A stretch of DNA of 64,000 nt from a virus (IMGVR_UViG_644736364_000008), one strand, 5' to 3'; positions 3,724-27,649 are shown, numbered from the stretch's first letter. Translations and numbers: made by a program. Notes: a model not told the origin generated them from the letters alone.

Positions 3724-4097
3724 GCTGCTACCTGTTGCGCCATCTGATTACGGGTGATCCAGAAGGCAATAACGGTCAGTAGATAAAAGACCAGGGTAAT
3801 AGCCCACCCCGTCCAGGCGAGACTTACAACAATCAGCAATCGCATCACCCAACTGGTAAATACGTTTTCTTTTCGAGTAATTGTCTTCAGCAAAGATGCC
3901 CTTAACTCCTGCCAGAGCGGGCCATTCTTAATTAACGCAGCCAGTGCTACCGGAATTACCGCCCATGTCAGCAAACAGGCTACCCAAACGCCGGACGCTG
4001 CCAGTACCGGAAAAATCCCCTGCGGATACACCATTGCTGCGATTAACAGCGCCATCCATAACATCAGAAACAGTCCGCTGATTAATTTCTTTTTCAT
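3720..4097 (-). CDS. lysA: LysA-like lysis membrane protein (start chosen at MKKKLISG; ORF extends to 4169)
   Basis: Several hydrophobic helices; SD gggag upstream of ATG at 4097; position after endolysin. Confidence 0.55.
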   Translation of the reverse strand: MKKKLISGLFLMLWMALLIAAMVYPQGIFPVLAASGVWVACLLTWAVIPVALAALIKNGPLWQELRASLLKTITRKENVFTSWVMRLLIVVSLAWTGWAITLVFYLLTVIAFWITRNQMAQQVAA

Positions 4098-4098
4098 T

Positions 4099-4611
4099 TC
4101 AGTTTGCTCCCTGTAAACACCAGGCCATCTCCCGCGCACGGCGGTTATCCAGCCCCTGATTAAAAACACCTTTCACATAAACCCAGCGCGGCAACTGTCG
4201 GCATGCATCCGCCCAGCGCCGCTGATTGAGCAATTTCACCAGCGTGGAACTACAGGCATTGCCCGTCCCCACGTTGAAGGCAAACGACACCGTAGCGTCA
4301 TACACCTTCTGCGGCGGCTGTTGCTTCACACACCTTTCCAACGCCCGCTCCACTCGTAGCACGTTGGAGATCAGCCCTTCAGCTGCCTGTCGTTCCGTAA
4401 TAATTTTGCCGGGAATGACGCCCGACGTATTACCAATGCCGTCGGTCCAGACACCCGCGCTGCACTGATACGGCTGCAGACGACAGCCTTCATAATCAGC
4501 GATCAGTTTCAGTCCCTCCTCGGAGGTGTGAAGCTGCTGAAACCCCGGCAGCGTGGCAGCAATAGCCAGCACGGCCCCGACAAGGCAGCGTTTAACGATT
4601 GATGGATTCAT
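4099..4611 (-). CDS. K: Endolysin (P2 K-like lysozyme, signal-anchor type)
   Basis: 170 aa; N-terminal hydrophobic anchor; EGxxLxAYxCxAGVWT lysozyme-like motif; P2 gene order. Confidence 0.85.
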   Translation of the reverse strand: MNPSIVKRCLVGAVLAIAATLPGFQQLHTSEEGLKLIADYEGCRLQPYQCSAGVWTDGIGNTSGVIPGKIITERQAAEGLISNVLRVERALERCVKQQPPQKVYDATVSFAFNVGTGNACSSTLVKLLNQRRWADACRQLPRWVYVKGVFNQGLDNRRAREMAWCLQGAN

Positions 4612-4807
4612 AGTCCTCCCGCGAGATCTGCCCGTCGCGCAGAAGCTGGTAGGCTTTGTGTTTGTAGTACCAGTTGATAGCCAGCATCAGCACACCGATC
4701 ATCAGGCCGCCCAGCGTTGAGGCATCCTTGATGGACAAATCGCCCAGCCAGGCCAGCACGACGGCGATGCAATACGTGATAAAGGCGCTGATTCGCTCAA
4801 GCGTCAT
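4592..4807 (-). CDS. Y: Holin (P2 Y-like)
   Basis: 71 aa, two TM helices, charged C-terminus; immediately upstream of endolysin. Confidence 0.7.
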   Translation of the reverse strand: MTLERISAFITYCIAVVLAWLGDLSIKDASTLGGLMIGVLMLAINWYYKHKAYQLLRDGQISREDYESINR

Positions 4808-4810
4808 AAT

Positions 4811-5014
4811 TCAGTCCCATAGCTGGACGGTCTGCACGGTGGTGGTGGTCGGAATGTCCGGCAGCTCCACCTGCAGCCCGTGAGGTAAAAAGGGGCCGTA
4901 TTCGGCAAGCCCCGGATTTGCCTTCAGTACCTGCTCCGTGACACCCTGCGTGCGCCCGTAATGACGCCAGCAAAGTGCGTCCACCGTGTCATACTGATGC
5001 GCACGCACTTTCAT
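4811..5014 (-). CDS. X: Tail protein X
   Basis: 67 aa; position between L and Y as in P2. Confidence 0.65.
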   Translation of the reverse strand: MKVRAHQYDTVDALCWRHYGRTQGVTEQVLKANPGLAEYGPFLPHGLQVELPDIPTTTTVQTVQLWD

Positions 5015-18567: not shown

Positions 18568-18810
18568 TTACTTACCAACAATGACGCGGAAGTTGGAATG
18601 ACCGAGGGATTCACGGACCTGATCAGTTTTGTACATCAGATAACGAAGGCTTACGCGGCCTTTATTTTTTTCTTTCTTGACCATGTACTTAGCAAGTTGA
18701 CCATGGTGAATTTTTTGGTAAACAGAGCCACGGGAAATGCCCTCCCACTCTGCGAACTCTGCAGGCGTAGCCATCTCTTTTGGTACACGAATTGAAATAT
18801 CAGTACTCAT
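18568..18810 (-). CDS. apl: Apl/Cox-like excisionase and switch regulator
   Basis: 80-aa HTH protein (WEGISRGSVYQKIHHGQ) as first gene divergent from cI. Confidence 0.65.
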   Translation of the reverse strand: MSTDISIRVPKEMATPAEFAEWEGISRGSVYQKIHHGQLAKYMVKKEKNKGRVSLRYLMYKTDQVRESLGHSNFRVIVGK

Positions 18811-18931: not shown

Positions 18932-19564
18932 ATGTTAAACATCAGAATGGGTTCCGATACGGGAGGTAAGGCAGCTATTGAGAGGCTGCTTGAGGCTTAT
19001 GGATTCACAACTAAGCAGGCATTAAGCGAGCACCTGAATGTCTCAAAAAGTACTATGGCAAACAGAGTGTTACGTGACAGTTTTCCTGCTGACTGGATAA
19101 TTCAGTGTGCACTAGAAACCGGTGTTTCGTTACTTTGGTTAGCCACTGGACAGGGAAGCATGAAAGAAGGATACGAGTCTGAGAAAAGATCTCATAACGA
19201 GAACAAACAAGCAATTAAACCGTTATCCAAACTCATAACTCCATCTATTCCTAAAGGAACCTTGGAAAATGGACAACTCAGTATTGATGAAGAGATTTTC
19301 CTAGACCACAGCATATTACCTGCAGATTATGAAGAATCGATGTTCTTAGAAACCCCTACTGATTGTTATCTCATCGATAAATCAGTTAAACAAGTCAGCA
19401 ATGGATTCTGGCTTATCAATATTGATGGAATGATTATTATTGCAAAAATCATGCGGATTCCCGGCAATAAGATTGTAGTAAATCAAGATGAAGCGTCTTT
19501 CGAGTGCTCTGCCGATGATGTGGAAGTTATTGGGCGTGCAGTCAAAGTAATAAAGAGTATCTAA
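18932..19564 (+). CDS. cI: CI immunity repressor
   Basis: 210 aa with N-terminal HTH; divergent from apl and upstream of int as in 186. Confidence 0.8.
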   Translation: MLNIRMGSDTGGKAAIERLLEAYGFTTKQALSEHLNVSKSTMANRVLRDSFPADWIIQCALETGVSLLWLATGQGSMKEGYESEKRSHNENKQAIKPLSKLITPSIPKGTLENGQLSIDEEIFLDHSILPADYEESMFLETPTDCYLIDKSVKQVSNGFWLINIDGMIIIAKIMRIPGNKIVVNQDEASFECSADDVEVIGRAVKVIKSI

Positions 19565-19566
19565 AC

Positions 19567-20586
19567 ATGACTGTCAGAAAACAGCCAAACGGTAAATGGT
19601 TGTGCGAGTGCTATCCCAATGGACGCAATGGCAAGCGCGTGCGTAAGCAATTTGCTACGAAAGGCGAAGCCATTGCTTTTGAAAGCTTCACAATGGAAGA
19701 AGTGAACAAAAAACCATGGCTGGGGGAAAAGGAAGATCGGCGACACCTATCAGAATTAATTGAGCAGTGGTATTCCCTGTATGGTCAAACACTCGCAGAC
19801 CCCAAGCGCCTCATAGCGAAACTTAGAATTATCTGTAATGGTCTAGGCGATCCCATCGCTTCAGAACTGACAGCCGGTGACTTTACGAAATACCGCGAAG
19901 CACGGTTAAAAGGTGAAGTACGAAATGAAGATGGCACGTTTATGTCGCCCGTTAAGCCCCGCACGGTAAACCTTGAACAGCGCAATCTATCATCTGTTTT
20001 TGGTACACTGAAAAAGCTGGGCCACTGGTCAGCCCCCAACCCGCTTGCTGGGCTGCCAACATTTAAAATTGCTGAGAGTGAATTGGCGTTCCTGACCCCG
20101 GAAGAAATTAAACGTCTGCTGGATGCCTGCGCCGATTCTCAAAGCTCCAGCCTGCTTTTGATTGCAAAAATATGCCTGGCCACCGGCGCACGCTGGAGCG
20201 AAGCCGAAAACCTGCAGAGTCATCAGGTATCAAAATACCGTATCACTTATACCAAGACCAAAGGCAAGAAAAACCGAACTGTGCCTATTTCTAAGGATTT
20301 ATATGAAGAACTGCCTAAGAATAGGGGGAAGTTATTCACCCCATGCAGAAAAGCCTTTGAGCGTGCAGTAAAGCGAGCCGGTTTAGAACTACCAGAAGGC
20401 CAATGTACCCATGTTCTGCGCCATACATTTGCCAGTCATTTTATGATGAACGGTGGAAATATACTGGTACTGCGCGATATTCTTGGACATGCCGATATAA
20501 AAATGACGATGATTTACGCTCATTTTTCCCCAGATCATCTTGAAGATGCAGTAACTAAAAACCCATTAGCAACCTTGATGGATTAA
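19567..20586 (+). CDS. int: Tyrosine integrase (P2/186 type)
   Basis: 339 aa; C-terminal RHTFASH...GH...Y catalytic motifs. Confidence 0.9.
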   Translation: MTVRKQPNGKWLCECYPNGRNGKRVRKQFATKGEAIAFESFTMEEVNKKPWLGEKEDRRHLSELIEQWYSLYGQTLADPKRLIAKLRIICNGLGDPIASELTAGDFTKYREARLKGEVRNEDGTFMSPVKPRTVNLEQRNLSSVFGTLKKLGHWSAPNPLAGLPTFKIAESELAFLTPEEIKRLLDACADSQSSSLLLIAKICLATGARWSEAENLQSHQVSKYRITYTKTKGKKNRTVPISKDLYEELPKNRGKLFTPCRKAFERAVKRAGLELPEGQCTHVLRHTFASHFMMNGGNILVLRDILGHADIKMTMIYAHFSPDHLEDAVTKNPLATLMD

Positions 20587-20590
20587 GCAC

Positions 20591-21814
20591 ATGCGCAACA
20601 TTATCGAATTAGAACAGATATCGGAAGAACTAAAAAAACATGAACTATTGCAACCCCCATTCATTGCCGAGGGAAAACTAATTTCTGACTTTTCTAAGAG
20701 AGTCGAGTGCTATTTAGAATTAATTGACTCCATTAGAAATAAATATCCTGACAACGAGATAATTAAACAAGTAAAGATTCGCACAAAATCAATAATATAT
20801 TTATCTGATAAAATAATAGAAACTCTTAAGCTATTTTTAATAGGAAATGTTAAAGAAGCTTATAAAAAATTCGATTTGGCAATTACCAAGTCATCAATGC
20901 ATACTCATCTTTATAAGATGACTGTTCCTCTAACTAAATTATGCAACCCACACACCCCTTTATTTCGCGTAAGGAAAAGTGAGTGCATCCTAAAACAAAG
21001 AGAAGAATTATTTCATATACCATTTAAAAATAGACATTTAGTTAGCGCACAAAGATTTTCTGTATCCGGTCTTCCATGTTTATATCTTGGAACATCAATA
21101 TTTGTATGTTGGCAAGAAATGGGAAAACCTGACTTTGATAAACTTTACATATCTTCCTTCATATCCGATAAAGAAAATTCAAATATAAGAATTTTAGATC
21201 TTGGGTACAATTTAACATCTGCACTTCGTACAAAACCGGGAGATCTTTGGTATTCATTCGAACAAGGTTCAGATGATGATTACGATCTAAATAATGATAA
21301 TTTCATGGATCAAATTAATGATAAAATTTCAAAGTTGATTGCATGGCCTTTAGTCCTTGCATGTAACTATACAAAAGATAATGAAAACGCAAGTTTTAAT
21401 AAAGAATACATAATACCAAACCTATTAATGCAATGGATTAGTAGTGACAGAAACAAAAATATATCAGGGATATCGTATCGATCAACAAAGATATTAAACC
21501 AAAAAGATAGCGATATTGGGATTAATGTAATTATCCCCCCAAAAATAGAAAACATAGTTGAAACCAATGATACCCACTGTCCTGTTTTAAAAAAAATATT
21601 TAGAGTTACAAACCCTGTTTCCTGGACTGTGTTTAGTACACTAGAAGCCACCCCCTATCTATACAAAAATAATTTTAATTTTTCGACCTATAATCCCGCA
21701 AAAGGATGGATTGAAGACTTTGATGAATCCCTTGTTGAACATTATGAAAATACCACTTTTAGAAAAGTTGAACTCCTTATTCATCAAATGATGAAGTATG
21801 AATATTTAAAATAA
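20591..21814 (+). CDS. AT-rich cargo protein (407 aa) with central RES-like domain
   Basis: Strongly AT-rich ORF between int and att; LFRVRKSE...QRFSVSGLPCLYLGTSIFVCWQE resembles the RES (Arg-Glu-Ser) toxin signature. Confidence 0.75.
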   Translation: MRNIIELEQISEELKKHELLQPPFIAEGKLISDFSKRVECYLELIDSIRNKYPDNEIIKQVKIRTKSIIYLSDKIIETLKLFLIGNVKEAYKKFDLAITKSSMHTHLYKMTVPLTKLCNPHTPLFRVRKSECILKQREELFHIPFKNRHLVSAQRFSVSGLPCLYLGTSIFVCWQEMGKPDFDKLYISSFISDKENSNIRILDLGYNLTSALRTKPGDLWYSFEQGSDDDYDLNNDNFMDQINDKISKLIAWPLVLACNYTKDNENASFNKEYIIPNLLMQWISSDRNKNISGISYRSTKILNQKDSDIGINVIIPPKIENIVETNDTHCPVLKKIFRVTNPVSWTVFSTLEATPYLYKNNFNFSTYNPAKGWIEDFDESLVEHYENTTFRKVELLIHQMMKYEYLK

Positions 21815-21930: not shown

Positions 21931-21975
21931 ATGTAGGAATTTCGGACGCGGGTTCAACTCCCGCCAGCTCCACCA
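21931..21975 (+). ncRNA. ssrA: 3'-terminal 45 nt of tmRNA gene ssrA (attachment-site remnant)
   Basis: atgtaggaatttcggacgcgggttcaactcccgccagctccacca matches the enterobacterial ssrA 3' end; upstream sequence is not ssrA. Confidence 0.7.
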
Positions 21976-22103
21976 ATCATGATTGGACGGTGTAAGGACA
22001 ACACCAACAAAAACAGGAAGTTAGAAGTCTCAGCAGGACACCGACCAGACGGTGAGGAGACATAAAAGGATACGCAAAGGAGCCGCGGCTCCGAAGTGAA
22101 ATG

Positions 22104-22129
22104 AAAGCCCGCTGATGCGGGCTTTTTTG
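22104..22129 (+). terminator. Rho-independent terminator
   Basis: aagcccgc-tgat-gcgggctt followed by TTTTTT. Confidence 0.5.
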
Positions 22130-22360: not shown

Positions 22361-22558
22361 ATGGCACTGGACAGTTATGCATCTCCGAATATTATTCCGG
22401 AGCTAAGACAACCGAATGCCGCAGCAGGTAAGATCACGCTAGGGGGGCTGGACAGAATGGCTGTTACGCCCAGTGTGAAGAAAAGAAGGCTAAGTATGGT
22501 AGAATTTCCATACGCACAGACCTTGTTATCCGACTATACAGCCTGGAAGGCACTATGA
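22361..22558 (+). CDS. Small ORF (65 aa) coupled to the downstream nuclease-like gene
   Basis: Stop overlaps next ATG (ATGA). Confidence 0.3.
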   Translation: MALDSYASPNIIPELRQPNAAAGKITLGGLDRMAVTPSVKKRRLSMVEFPYAQTLLSDYTAWKAL

Positions 22559-23343
22559 CAAATCTACAACTGGAAGAAAGATTTAGGGCGCTTGAGAAAG
22601 ATTACGATGCGCTCATTTCCACAAAATATACTGCGCAGAACGTTCTCACTCACACTATGGAAACCTATGTTGATTCTGGTAAATATAAAAACTGGATCGC
22701 CAGAGTGAAAAAGTTAATAGAGGACAGCTACGGAAAAGAGTCTGATTATTACAATGACTTCAATACTGTAAACAGCAGGTGGTCTTCTAATTACAATACA
22801 CTGATCAAAAGTTATAAACCGTTGTTTGATGCGGCGAGAGATGATCTTGCGCACTCTGCTGTCAGTACTAATACTCCTCAAGAAGGTTCGCCGCTGAGCC
22901 TCGTACTTAATATTCTTAACAGGTTTCCGACCTTTGTTCGCCAGTTAAAGAGGCGGTACAACGGCCGTGCGCCGCTTGAAGTTAATGATGAGTATGACGT
23001 ACAGGATTTGATTTATGCACTGCTGACGCTTCATTTTAATGATATTAGGGCGGAAGAGTATACCCCCAGCTTTGCGGGCGCGGCCTCAAGACAGGACTTT
23101 CTTTTGAAAAAAGAGAAAATTGTGATAGAGGTGAAGAAAACCCGTGAATCTCTGGGAGCGGGTAAAGTTGGTGGAGAGTTGCTTATTGATATGGCGCGCT
23201 ACCGCGCTCACCAAGACTGCGATACGTTGATCTTGTTTGTATATGACCCGGATTGCTACATAAATAATCCTTTGGGCGTGAAAACCGATCTGGAATCTAA
23301 AGACGCGGAAGGAAAAGTGAAGGTTGTTATTGCGCAGTTCTGA
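22555..23343 (+). CDS. PD-(D/E)xK nuclease-like protein (262 aa) with N-terminal coiled-coil region
   Basis: C-terminal EVNDEYDVQDL ... KIVIEVKK pattern fits a D...(D/E)xK restriction-endonuclease-like core. Confidence 0.65.
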   Translation: MTNLQLEERFRALEKDYDALISTKYTAQNVLTHTMETYVDSGKYKNWIARVKKLIEDSYGKESDYYNDFNTVNSRWSSNYNTLIKSYKPLFDAARDDLAHSAVSTNTPQEGSPLSLVLNILNRFPTFVRQLKRRYNGRAPLEVNDEYDVQDLIYALLTLHFNDIRAEEYTPSFAGAASRQDFLLKKEKIVIEVKKTRESLGAGKVGGELLIDMARYRAHQDCDTLILFVYDPDCYINNPLGVKTDLESKDAEGKVKVVIAQF

Positions 23344-23430
23344 CACGCTTAAGTGTCACCTTACAGGATTAGGTTTGCGGCCGTGCCAGCAGGACGAGCA
23401 TGAAAAAGGCCGCTGGCACGGCCGGATTTG

Positions 23431-23724
23431 TCATCTTTGCCAGGTCAAATCAAAATCTACGTGAAAATCCGCAGGCTTAAGCTCGCAACTGCCACCACGC
23501 CCAATTAACGACGTTATGTTTACAACGTTTGAACCTGTTGAGATGGCAAGTTGAGTGTCATCTGTAAACGTGATGATTAGCATTTCAGTCTGATGAACCT
23601 GTACTCCAGTTTTCTGAAAACCAATCTGGACAGATTTCACCGTTTTCCCAACCATTTCACGGGCTTGATTGATAGAGTAATTAGCTTCAACTTGTAGGTC
23701 ATTCCTGAACTTGGGTAGTGTCAT
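23431..23724 (-). CDS. Hypothetical protein (97 aa)
   Basis: ORF downstream of the GIY-YIG gene on the same strand. Confidence 0.45.
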   Translation of the reverse strand: MTLPKFRNDLQVEANYSINQAREMVGKTVKSVQIGFQKTGVQVHQTEMLIITFTDDTQLAISTGSNVVNITSLIGRGGSCELKPADFHVDFDLTWQR

Positions 23725-23934
23725 TTTACATCCTCTTTAGTGAAGTTTTCGCTATTTAAATCAGCAGCATTCCTTTTAAATCACTGGCATGTCAGCAGTG
23801 GATAGTCTGAGTGTAACGTCCAGTGAGGGGAATAAATATTGGTCAGACTTTGCACAAAAGAGCCAACTATCGCGGGCTCTCTCTCATCATGTGCGAAAAT
23901 TGACCACAATATGAAATCCAGTTCCATTCCGAAA

Positions 23935-24759
<825 letters not shown>

Positions 24760-24857
24760 TCAATTGACAACTTATAATCCCTACTAGTTAGCATTATGAT
24801 TTCCAGAGTGAGGAATATAAAAATCTCTGTTTCTGGCACATAACAGCCCTTAAGATC

Positions 24858-24915
24858 GTAGCTCGCCATCATGGGGTGTCGGGGGGCGGAGGTTCAAATC
24901 CTCTCGTGCCGACCA
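24858..24915 (+). tRNA. 3' fragment (about 58 nt) of a tRNA-Pro(GGG)-like gene; 5' acceptor/D-arm absent
   Basis: ggaggttcaaatcctctcgtgccgacca (T-arm, 3' acceptor, CCA) with anticodon-loop-like tcatggggtg; no complementary 5' acceptor strand. Confidence 0.6.
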
Positions 24916-24928
24916 AAAATCCCTTAAG

Positions 24929-24956
24929 AACCAGCCTATTATGGCTGGTTTTTTTA
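24929..24956 (+). terminator. Rho-independent terminator after the tRNA fragment
   Basis: aaccagcc-tatta-tggctggtt followed by TTTTTTT. Confidence 0.6.
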
Positions 24957-25097
24957 TGATTGTTTTTTATGCGGAGAAATACCGGGGAATAATTGGGGTA
25001 AAACACCTTTAGGCTATTCACTTAGCCTACCACCATCAAAATCTTTCCGAATGTATCCATCTCTTTTTTCTTATGCAGCTAAAACGAAGTCTTGATA

Positions 25098-25141
25098 CTG
25101 TTTATTTACACAGATAAGAATAATACTGTCTACAAACGCAG
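25098..25141 (+). promoter_or_regulatory. Two LexA boxes (one exact, one with one mismatch) upstream of a DinI-like remnant
   Basis: ctgtttatttacacag (CTGT-N8-ACAG) and ctgtctacaaacgcag. Confidence 0.5.
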
Positions 25142-25156
25142 TACAAAAGAAGTGTT

Positions 25157-25335
25157 ATGCGTATTGAGATCTCCATAGCCAAAGACAAAATGACCAAATG
25201 CCAAACGGCGCTGTGGACGCGTTAAAGGAAGAATTAACCCAACACATTGGCAAGCGTTATGACGATGTGGAGATGATCGTAAAAGCCACCAGCAACGATA
25301 GTTTTTCAGTTAGACATACTGCAGATAAAGATTGA
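25157..25335 (+). pseudogene. DinI-family gene disrupted by a frameshift
   Basis: Frame 1 gives [14 protein letters not shown] then stops; a second frame starting at 25198 gives [38 protein letters not shown] (DinI-like core). Confidence 0.45.
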
Positions 25336-25759
25336 GCTAAAACTTTCGTTCAGGAAACTCTGAATGATACCTGAGAGTCTACTGAAGAGTTGTTTGTTCA
25401 CTAGTTAGCACGTAGGAAATCATTCAATACTCGCACTATCGGAAGTTCACCAGCCAGTCGTAGCACGTCCTTGCAAACGACGTGCCTACGGTTTCAATCA
25501 CCTCTCACCATCAATTCTATCAATAATAATTAAACAGCGCCTAGACAAAATAAATAACAACAAGTCAACAACCTCGACAGGATGCCGATGGGATGATGAA
25601 GAGATAAGAAAGAATAACCAGTAAAGCCCTAAAACGTCAGCGTTCAGACGCGTTTTTTACTTAATCGGTAACAAATACGTTGTATCATAGCAAAATAAAA
25701 TGATTGTTCTAAATCAGATTAACTCCTCACTTTTGTACAATGTCGCTTACAGGTATACC

Positions 25760-27649
25760 ATGAAATCCGAGACGCTAACTGTCCAACAACTTTTTCAAGA
25801 CCGCCGACAATACTGTGTTCCATTCTATCAACGTGCCTATGTATGGACTCAGCAAGACCAGTGGTCAGCTCTACTGGAGGATATCCTAGAGAAAGTACAA
25901 TCCCGGCTCTCGGGTACAAAACCAACTCCCCATTTCCTTGGTGCGGTTGTACTGGAACCTCAATCAAAAAAAGGATTATTAGGTGTAGATTCCATACATA
26001 TTATTGATGGTCAGCAACGATTGACCACTCTTCAATATGTTCTGGCATCCATCCGATTAGCATTACGTGCTACGGATCTTTCCAGCTTAGAGGCTCTCAT
26101 TTCGCCTTGCCTGAAAAACTCAAACGAAGACACAATGCGAAATAAAGAAGTAGAACGCTTCAAACTGTGGCCAACTTTTCGGGATCAAACTCATTTTATT
26201 CAAAGTTTTAATGTTGAAAATATTGACGATCTCCGGGACGTATTCTCTGATAGTTTCACGCAGCATGGTACGTTGCGTAAGCATTTTAATCACCCGCCAT
26301 CACTAGAAGCATTATGTTTTTTTACTGAAGCCTTTATAAAATGGATTAAAATAGAAAACCACTCACCACAAGAAAATGCTGTAGCTCTAATTGAGGCTGT
26401 CTTAACAGATCTGAAACTGGTAAGCATATTTCTCGAAGCTGAAGATGATGCCCAAATAATTTTTGAAACATTAAATGGGCGAGGGGCGGAACTTCATGCT
26501 ACGGATCTTATTCGCAACTATATCTTTATGTGCGCTGAGCATGAAAATATTAATGCTATTGAATTATATGAAAATGAGTGGAAGAGCTTTGAAGATAAAT
26601 ACTGGTCGGAAAAACAACGCCGTGGACGTATTAATAAACCACGCATGGAGTGGCTAGTACATGCGACATTGCAATCAGAAAGGCAACGTGAAATTGATCT
26701 GTCTCGCCTTTACAATGAGTATCGTGATTATGTAAGTAAGGACTTGTCTTCACAACGAGCAGATCTGCAAGTAAAGCGCCTCAAACAATATGCATCACAA
26801 TATAAAGAATTGGTTGATGGTTTTGGCACAACCCCCATCTCACACTTTGGATATCGCATCGCAGACTATGATGTGACGACACTTTATCCGCTTGCTTTGT
26901 TCATTTCGATAGCTAACATCGCTGATGATGAGAAAGCAGCCATGTATAATGATCTTGTCTCCTACGTAGTACGAAGAGCCGTATGTGGCCTGACGCCAAA
27001 GAATTACAACAATGTATTTATGAATGTATTGCGGCACTTGGCTAAAACGGAAATTTCCAGTGTTGAGTTACGTAATATCCTCAATAACTTAAATGGCGAA
27101 GCCTCACGTTGGCCTGGTGACTCAGAATTTCTCAACGCTTGCATCAATGCTCCACTTTATCCTGGCAGGCTCGACGCACCGAAAATGCGCTCAATGTTAA
27201 CGGAACTTGAAAGAGAACTTTGTCGCCAAGTAAAGACAGAAAAGCCTGATGTTCCAAATCTTTCTAATCTCGATATCGATCATCTTATGCCTCAAAGTTG
27301 GTATTCCTGTTGGCCTCTCGAAAATGGTCGTATGGTGACAAATTCAGATGCTACGGTATTGAACCAAATTGTTCTGTCTGGAACCGATCTTACCCCTGAA
27401 CAGCTACTGGTAAGGAAACGGCAACAAGCGATATCTACTTTGGGAAATCTAACTTTGCTTAACCTTAGCGTAAACCGTTCTGTTCAGAATGCTGTATTTC
27501 TGAAAAAACGTGATGCTCTCATCGTCCACACCAATCTACGACTGAACATTCCACTTATAGTTAAGGATAAATGGGATGAGGATGAAATCCTGGAGCGGGG
27601 TAAAAAGTTGGGGGAAATTGCATTGAAAGTATGGCCAAAACACGATTAA
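25760..27649 (+). CDS. GmrSD-family type IV (modification-dependent) restriction endonuclease-like protein (DUF262 + DUF1524/HNH)
   Basis: N-terminal IIDGQQRLTT motif and C-terminal DIDHLMPQSW...GNLTLLNLSVNRSVQN His-Me finger; alternative ATG at 25700. Confidence 0.8.
   Translation: MKSETLTVQQLFQDRRQYCVPFYQRAYVWTQQDQWSALLEDILEKVQSRLSGTKPTPHFLGAVVLEPQSKKGLLGVDSIHIIDGQQRLTTLQYVLASIRLALRATDLSSLEALISPCLKNSNEDTMRNKEVERFKLWPTFRDQTHFIQSFNVENIDDLRDVFSDSFTQHGTLRKHFNHPPSLEALCFFTEAFIKWIKIENHSPQENAVALIEAVLTDLKLVSIFLEAEDDAQIIFETLNGRGAELHATDLIRNYIFMCAEHENINAIELYENEWKSFEDKYWSEKQRRGRINKPRMEWLVHATLQSERQREIDLSRLYNEYRDYVSKDLSSQRADLQVKRLKQYASQYKELVDGFGTTPISHFGYRIADYDVTTLYPLALFISIANIADDEKAAMYNDLVSYVVRRAVCGLTPKNYNNVFMNVLRHLAKTEISSVELRNILNNLNGEASRWPGDSEFLNACINAPLYPGRLDAPKMRSMLTELERELCRQVKTEKPDVPNLSNLDIDHLMPQSWYSCWPLENGRMVTNSDATVLNQIVLSGTDLTPEQLLVRKRQQAISTLGNLTLLNLSVNRSVQNAVFLKKRDALIVHTNLRLNIPLIVKDKWDEDEILERGKKLGEIALKVWPKHD

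Follow-up and report, generated by a model that had tools for sequence, protein, structure and literature searches.

The 64,000-nt stretch of viral DNA IMGVR_UViG_644736364_000008 (the window) contains a prophage which, by its surrounding genes, is 186/Fels-2-like and belongs to the P2 family (Peduoviridae). Between its tyrosine integrase gene (int) and its right attachment site lies an open reading frame (ORF) of 407 codons, which encodes a long RES-domain-like protein of the PHROG 7835/SPbeta YopC-like family (Table 1). The ORF begins 4 nt after the int stop codon, with no gene in between, and ends about 115 nt before a remnant of ssrA. Estimated from base composition, the probability that a frame this long stays open by chance is roughly 1e-14, and the encoded protein has 296 homologues in a word index and 2719 representatives in a profile search; the ORF is therefore a real gene. 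Its GC content is 0.30–0.32, compared with 0.47–0.49 in int and 0.42–0.53 elsewhere in the prophage. The original prediction, made from the sequence alone, described a very AT-rich 407-residue gene directly after int and before an ssrA attachment-site remnant, and the coordinates, base composition and BLAST and Rfam results agree with it. Both peptides that it singled out are present in the protein, LFRVRKSE at residues 124–131 and QRFSVSGLPCLYLGTSIFVCWQE at residues 154–176.

The ssrA stretch gives a partial Rfam match to transfer-messenger RNA (tmRNA) and terminates in the acceptor arm and CCA (...GGACGCGGGTTCAACTCCCGCCAGCTCCACCA). BLAST matched it, together with approximately 150 nt beyond it, to the ssrA locus as annotated in 5425 of the 5426 complete Escherichia coli genomes. 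No Rfam family reached threshold in the window, and ARAGORN found no whole tmRNA there. Based on the partial match, the BLAST result and the lack of a whole tmRNA, the stretch was assigned as the attR remnant. Since the ORF lies between int and this site, it is the final gene of the prophage; no plus-strand ORF of at least 50 residues, and no plausible smaller one, was found between it and the attachment site. The gene is the third of a co-directional cI-int-RES string. Neither a terminator nor a convincing promoter was found between int and the ORF, and the first intrinsic-terminator-like hairpin 3' of the string lies within the native sequence downstream of ssrA. In phage 186, cI and int are under the control of the lysogenic promoter pL. 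By analogy with phage 186, the RES-like gene is probably transcribed together with cI and int in the lysogen. The only expression data found in the literature concern the homologue from phage Cartapus in E. coli LF82.

The DNA is 100% identical to that of E. coli MS7163 and N53, where the ORF is annotated as a 'hypothetical protein', and this allele is present in only 2 of the 5426 complete genomes. The 407-residue protein is identical to WP_001244285.1 and to UniRef entry B7MJK4_ECO45 from E. coli S88, and is also found in E. albertii. Additionally, at least 1000 Salmonella contigs carry a full-length 407-residue protein from its 90%-identity cluster.

The AlphaFold model of the protein (predicted local distance difference test, pLDDT, 77.5; predicted template modelling score, pTM, 0.80) suggests a RES core in two halves, separated by an insertion and flanked by an N-terminal helical domain and a C-terminal extension. 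The N-terminal domain keeps an L-x-G-x5-Y motif (L83, G85, Y91) and is proposed to be a regulatory or sensor module. The insertion has pLDDT values below 50 at residues 216–236 and a gap fraction of 0.25–0.31, and differs in length among homologues; pLDDT is also below 50 in the C-terminal linker (residues 361–373). Among close homologues, the median identity is 66% and 55% in the two core halves, compared with 31% in the N-terminal domain, 22% in the insertion, and 12% and 38% in the remaining accessory parts. As originally predicted, the protein is far longer than RES toxins, with about twice the 144–250 residues of the solved ones.

Table 1. Features of the prophage and its right-hand flank (positions counted from the first nucleotide of the window).
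Feature	Positions	Strand	Remarks
PD-T7-1 homologue, 468 residues, 'hypothetical protein'	11127–12536	-	PADLOC E 1.4e-196; no Pfam match
P2 gpA-like replication endonuclease gene	13444–15884	-	'frameshifted' in RefSeq
Perfect tandem duplication, 26 nt	13809–13860		inside the gpA-like gene
CII	18026–18535	-	
Apl/Rha-like gene	18568–18810	-	
186-type CI repressor	18932–19564	+	opens the co-directional cI-int-RES string
Tyrosine integrase (Fels-2/Cartapus type)	19567–20586	+	Pfam Int_N 1.1e-28, Phage_integrase 6.4e-26
Long RES-domain-like ORF, 407 residues	20591–21814	+	ATG start
N-terminal helical domain, residues 1–115	20591–20935	+	six predicted helices, pLDDT mostly 85–95
RES core, first half, residues 116–205	20936–21205	+	R126 (codon 20966–20968), FHIPF (H142), R155 (21053–21055), Y165 (21083–21085), E176 (21116–21118)
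Variable acidic Asp/Asn-rich insertion within the RES core, residues 206–250	21206–21340	+	partly disordered
RES core, second half, residues 251–350	21341–21640	+	E272-Y273, G293-x-x-Y-x-S/T298 strand, N312 (codon 21524–21526)
Variable linker, then two conserved C-terminal helices, residues 351–407	21641–21811	+	Y385, F390
ssrA (tmRNA) 3' end, approximately 45 nt	21931–21975	+	integration duplicate, attR core, prophage boundary
Intrinsic-terminator-like hairpin	22103–22126	+	10-bp stem, T tract
DpnII/MboI-fold nuclease	22555–23343	+	also PADLOC 'Aga helical-REase'
PD-T4-3 GIY-YIG	23935–24741	-	E 8.5e-137
GmrSD type IV restriction enzyme	25760–27649	+	

The assignment of this protein to the RES domain is supported, through deeper evidence only. 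A search with the Pfam RES model (PF08808, COG5654; gathering threshold 23.2 bits), which had been put forward as a check of the assignment, left the window protein below threshold at 12.2 bits (E 0.19; residues 141–205 against profile positions 11–75 of 157), and NCBIfam gave zero matches. RES is nevertheless the sole Pfam family that recurs among the homologues, matching 15 of 25 close homologues (E<1) and 27 of 45 diverse ones (E<0.1; best E 6.3e-6). YopC of SPbeta, which is named 'RES domain-containing protein' in RefSeq, scores 22.4 bits over profile positions 17–126. The predicted model appears to share the RES/ADP-ribosyltransferase (ART)-like β-sandwich of the solved RES toxins: five of its six best fold matches are solved RES toxins and one is a classical ADP-ribosyltransferase, with fold-match figures of 6.9 for NatT, 6.5 for diphtheria toxin, 6.4 for VPA0770, and 6.0 each for Pseudomonas putida Res and ParT. 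Foldseek gave nothing useful in PDB or BFVD; therefore, the resemblance is that of a distant fold relative. Hidden Markov model searches of PDB with the family profiles A1 and A2 were set aside, as the sole matches, between the N-terminal helices and designed helical bundles, were spurious. The resemblance to RES toxins that the original prediction saw in the center of the protein thus gains from the family-wide Pfam recurrence, the fold and invariant Arg and Glu residues, but not from the sub-threshold score of the window protein itself or from the Ser of the signature, which could not be placed. The RES assignment is already public, as UniRef B7MJK4_ECO45 is named 'RES domain-containing protein', and in the record of phage Cartapus the homologue carries the label 'putative RES protein, NAD+ binding domain'.

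Residue conservation was analysed in an alignment of 45 homologues that share 24–47% identity with the window protein. H142, R155, S157, G160, P162, Y165, W174, E176 and E272 are invariant, and R126, R128, R148, S169, C173, N312 and P316 are kept in 43–44 of the homologues (R126, R128 and N312 in 44 each). The family profile was compared with an alignment of 24 members of the clade of the RES toxin MbcT (reference sequence from PDB entry 6fkg). In this comparison, hhalign pairs LPCLYLGTSIFVCWQE with FPAIYLADSAQACMVE, which places Y165 on Y58 and E176 on E69 of MbcT; with relaxed settings, QRFS is paired with GRWN and, hence, R155 with R47. R155 lies in a low-confidence loop right before the strand formed by residues 164–167, and R47 of MbcT occupies the tip of the loop that leads into strand 2. 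The significance of the hhalign match is confined to the Y165–E176 block (E about 0.005), and the C-terminal half is unaligned, so the correspondences of Ser and Asn rest on the order of secondary structure elements. By this order, R126, which lies within the first strand (LFRVRK, residues 124–129), would correspond to MbcT R27, and N312 (strand G-I-N-V-I-I, located in the G-I-N-V-V-x-P-P strand of the family) to the region-3 position of MbcT (G152). Judged by the spacing from a conserved Trp (W282; W136 in MbcT), the equivalent of MbcT S126 would coincide with the invariant E272/Y273; the column of S298 contains Ser or Thr (39 Ser, 6 Thr). Of the R/E/S triad that was to be confirmed by alignment, R155 and E176 are therefore invariant and match MbcT R47 and E69, but no residue could be assigned to the Ser.

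MbcT requires R27, R47 and Y58 for toxicity, its E69A variant has limited activity, and S126 is dispensable (Freire et al., PMC6436930). The RES clade of ARTs has an R-Y-N triad in place of R-S-E (Iyer et al., PMC9503650), and N312 fits this triad. Because the residues that match those needed by MbcT are kept, the alignment argues for an active enzyme rather than a dead fold. A RES-like fold that has lost its NAD+ chemistry or been repurposed, and acts as a binding or scaffold protein, or a resemblance too remote to say anything of function, is consistent with the sub-threshold Pfam score, the weak hhalign probability, the blank Foldseek search and the unplaced Ser, and the Legionella RES protein GndR does not display canonical toxin behavior (PMC12457610). 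In view of the kept residues, we regard this explanation as very unlikely.

The family to which the protein belongs is large and uncharacterised, with a fixed full-length architecture. The protein matches PHROG 7835, which is annotated as 'unknown function', with an E-value of 4.8e-180. An exhaustive profile search at E<=1e-3 returned 2719 sequences, each representing a 50%-identity cluster; 1130 of them reach E<=1e-30, and the majority have 350–420 residues and match over their whole length. When one genome was scanned for each species, 311 encoding stretches were confirmed, and the returned loci come from Enterobacteriaceae, Aeromonas, Bacteroidota, Acidobacteriota, Planctomycetota, Paenibacillus, Myxococcota and others. 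Members are also found in genuine phage genomes, namely Cartapus (CARTA_33), RE2010, SopEPhi (orfY) and SPbeta (YopC, 29% identity to the window protein, E 4e-34), which have the same full-length architecture. A few members contain 80–110 additional residues at the N-terminus. One member of 611 residues (P0148) has an additional C-terminal domain of approximately 230 residues, for which no sequence match was found in PDB.

The neighborhoods of 80 homologous loci were analysed for partner genes, with Pfam scans of the 133 nearest neighbors from the 73 loci outside Enterobacteriaceae. The 133 neighbors fell into 140 Pfam families, among which only integrases and restriction genes recur. All-against-all BLAST of the neighbors from the 80 loci gave just two recurrent groups, integrases (8 loci) and a protein of approximately 220 residues. 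A conserved small antitoxin ORF was not found next to the homologues, and none of the 80 loci has a neighbor like YopB or MbcA. In canonical MbcT loci, an antitoxin with the Xre_MbcA_ParS_C domain (PF09722) is encoded immediately upstream; this domain was found neither in the window protein nor adjoining it, and its neighbors in the window are int and the attachment site, not an Xre-type helix-turn-helix (HTH) antitoxin gene. A 'fused antitoxin' in the N-terminal domain was rejected, since hhalign against MbcA homologues from MbcT loci gave a probability of 0.2%. Without an antitoxin neighbor and with an N-terminal domain unlike MbcA, the window protein stands outside any Xre-RES pair. In most of the family, the gene is solitary. 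The original prediction had noted no obvious adjacent antitoxin, and this holds here and in most homologous loci.

The recurrent protein of approximately 220 residues belongs to one clade of Bacteroidota and is encoded before the RES gene in eight loci (L039, L040, L041, L042, L047, L071, L073 and L082; about positions 4000–5000 in each). Its ORF overlaps the start of the RES gene by 4–14 nt in seven of the eight loci and is separated from it by 1 nt in L082. It has no match in Pfam or PADLOC, and might act as an antitoxin or sensor specific to this clade. In SPbeta, a 75-residue Cro/C1-type HTH gene, yopB, lies upstream of yopC (442 residues; locus L003, 2348–4011). This layout recalls an Xre-RES pair, and YopB has no match to Xre_MbcA_ParS_C at E<=1.

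These loci also bear on the possibility that the protein is an addiction or stabilisation toxin, which would be held in check in trans by CI or by an unrecognised small protein or RNA, would be freed by loss or induction of the prophage, and would serve prophage maintenance instead of defense. Every RES protein with a solved structure is the toxin of a two-gene Xre-RES module, yopB precedes yopC in SPbeta, the clade of Bacteroidota has a translationally coupled partner, and the gene in enterobacterial prophages is always within the cI-int string. However, a recurrent partner is absent in 64 of the 80 loci, from many phyla; there is no Xre_MbcA_ParS_C domain in the protein or its neighbors and no fitting small ORF before the attachment site; and the 186-type CI has no RES-binding domain according to Pfam. 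A lone toxin in hundreds of unrelated contexts is also hardly compatible with a dedicated antidote in trans, and we consider an addiction module distinctly improbable.

The interval between int and the attachment site is a variable cargo slot, and the position that the original prediction called classic for cargo was well judged. The gene has the position, the variable content among relatives and the deviant GC content (0.30 versus about 0.47) of int-att cargo (a moron). The integrase is 90–96% identical in about 30 deposited phages, and phages with an integrase at least 90% identical differ in what follows int or have no such cargo. The slot contains a RES-like allele, 42% or 38% identical, in Cartapus, RE2010 and SE479_1PHIH2, and in SopEPhi, and the homologues in the enterobacterial phages of PHROG 7835 are likewise located directly after int. 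The window protein is thus 38–42% identical to the alleles of Fels-2-like phages, while the integrases are 90–93% identical. In Klebsiella phage ST437-OXA245phi4.1, the slot encodes an unrelated hypothetical protein of 516 residues (L086, 5023–6573), and the slot at the ssrA remnant of E. coli LR-33 encodes one of 197 residues (L085, 4089–4682). Neither matches Pfam or PADLOC, and both are further candidates for unknown cargo functions. SEN8 and MLG42 have no such cargo gene before attP and the tail genes, but only small hypothetical ORFs of 48–160 residues, and the Fels-2 record extends just 156 nt beyond int.

A 2026 survey of 1511 P2-like prophages identified the int-att interval as a minor defense hotspot, with 3% of the P2 systems (PMC13586616). 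Among the genes beside distant homologues are those for restriction-modification of types I, III and IV, DISARM DrmD, BrxH, PbeA, IetA, a STAND-TPR NTPase and a Shedu-like protein. The window itself contains other defense genes. The homologue of PD-T7-1 is in the classical portal-gpA hotspot of P2, and a defense island (22555–27649) begins in the chromosomal flank right past attR at ssrA; besides the nuclease, GIY-YIG and GmrSD genes listed in Table 1, the island contains a DinI pseudogene, and is followed by a recombinase fragment and Mu/e14-like tail genes. The gpA-like replication gene of the prophage is interrupted by the tandem duplication, and in silico deletion of one copy of the repeat restores a single ORF of 804 residues. 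Because the duplication breaks this gene, the prophage is probably defective in replication, with its cargo genes intact.

In a further reading, the product serves the phage itself. It could be an ADP-ribosyltransferase that, similar to T4 Alt/Mod, modifies proteins of the host or of competitors, an enzyme that removes immune signals derived from nicotinamide adenine dinucleotide (NAD+), or a factor for lysogenic conversion or virulence. The ART fold contains protein-modifying enzymes, and the RES protein ParT ADP-ribosylates Prs. Members of the family are present in the bona fide phages Cartapus, RE2010, SopEPhi and SPbeta, of which SopEPhi is a virulence-converting phage. Most members, however, are not in phages, but are located beside restriction, DISARM, BREX, STAND or housekeeping genes; the window gene is in the lysogenic, not the lytic, operon; and no hydrophobic N-terminal stretch was seen when the sequence was read by eye, without a predictor. 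Moreover, the gene is dispensable for the phage cycle, as the close relatives SEN8, MLG42 and Fels-2 do not have it. A phage-serving role therefore seems unlikely.

We favor, at slightly less than even odds (a probability of roughly 0.45), a self-contained, prophage-borne RES effector that consumes NAD+ or uses it for ADP-ribosylation, is autoinhibited, and is triggered by phage to cause abortive infection. The RES/ART-fold core (approximately residues 116–205 and 251–350) would bind NAD+ and destroy it by phosphorolysis or hydrolysis; alternatively, it could use NAD+ to ADP-ribosylate an essential host protein. In the lysogen, the effector would be translated from the cI-int transcript, and its own fast-evolving N-terminal domain, insertion and C-terminal helices would keep it inactive until an infecting phage switches it on. 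Metabolism would then collapse before the cycle of the invader ends, and the abortive infection would protect the lysogen population. We infer the NAD+ substrate, the autoinhibition, the phage trigger and the defense phenotype from the following. An enzyme of a toxin family with an intact NAD+ site persists without an antidote in hundreds of contexts, so regulation should reside within the polypeptide or in a trigger. The modular conservation, low GC content, hotspot position and company of the gene make it resemble defense cargo. The broken replication gene beside an intact RES cargo gene likewise points to maintenance of the latter. The proposal in the original prediction of a self-contained abortive-infection effector is compatible with all findings.

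Several observations weigh against the effector reading. At the level of the domain, the window protein is below the Pfam RES threshold, hhalign matches it only weakly to the MbcT clade (E 0.004–0.006, probability 6–9%), Foldseek was blank, and the Ser of the R-E-S signature is unplaced. At the level of the system, PADLOC-DB v2.0.0 has no match at E<=1 for the window protein and none for YopC, so that a defense role draws only on position and neighbors. About a tenth of the nearest neighbors of distant homologues strongly match defense models, in a rough per-family reading with no matched control, and numerous neighbors are housekeeping genes. The family sometimes has a companion gene, as shown by yopB beside yopC and the partner in the Bacteroidota clade. 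Lastly, autoinhibition by the N-terminal domain is purely what we infer, and the literature searched contains no experiment on any family member.

The differences from the Xre-RES toxins (COG5654-COG5642: MbcT, NatT, P. putida Res, VPA0770 and ParT) are substantial. Compared with these toxins of 144–250 residues, the window protein has an additional N-terminal domain of approximately 115 residues, an insertion of approximately 45 residues and approximately 55 C-terminal residues; it has no Xre/MbcA/ParS antitoxin gene or antitoxin-like domain, and its signature Ser is not identifiable. It also differs from its relative YopC, as the window gene has no HTH gene upstream. The closest functional parallels are the systems DSR1/DSR2 SIR2, Thoeris ThsA, SIR2-HerA and SEFIR, which consist of one or a few genes and cause abortive infection by depleting NAD+. 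The proposed logic is the same, with an NAD+-destroying domain that is joined to a variable sensor or regulatory region, is encoded on mobile elements and in defense islands, and kills the cell or arrests its growth when triggered, but the catalytic fold (RES/ART) is unrelated to those of the SIR2/TIR systems, and PADLOC has no model for the window protein.

So far, RES domains have been understood solely as toxins restrained by Xre partners, whose role in persistence, plasmid stability or defense is debated. The form without an antitoxin is abundant, with 2719 clusters at 50% identity, and is found in prophage cargo slots and near defense genes. Iyer et al. mention only phage-borne RES-HTH toxin-antitoxin pairs (PMC9503650), and no study of a long antitoxin-less RES family or of RES-based defense was found in the literature searched. 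It is conceivable, with the odds somewhat against it, that long RES proteins of the YopC-like type form a widespread and unrecognised class of single-gene anti-phage systems, in which the variable parts sense the phage and release the RES domain. The gene is a good and cheap candidate for a defense screen; it is not a new principle. If it is not defensive, it would still be a conserved, prophage-borne putative NAD+ enzyme of unknown purpose. If it is defensive, it would bring a new effector fold to NAD+-depletion immunity, provide a one-gene model of how an ART-fold enzyme is silenced and then triggered, and account for a recurrent unannotated gene in prophages of E. coli, Salmonella and Klebsiella, which are of clinical importance. 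As far as we found, it would then be the first RES-based defense without an antitoxin, and Xre-RES pairs and long RES proteins would be two regulatory solutions for one weapon.

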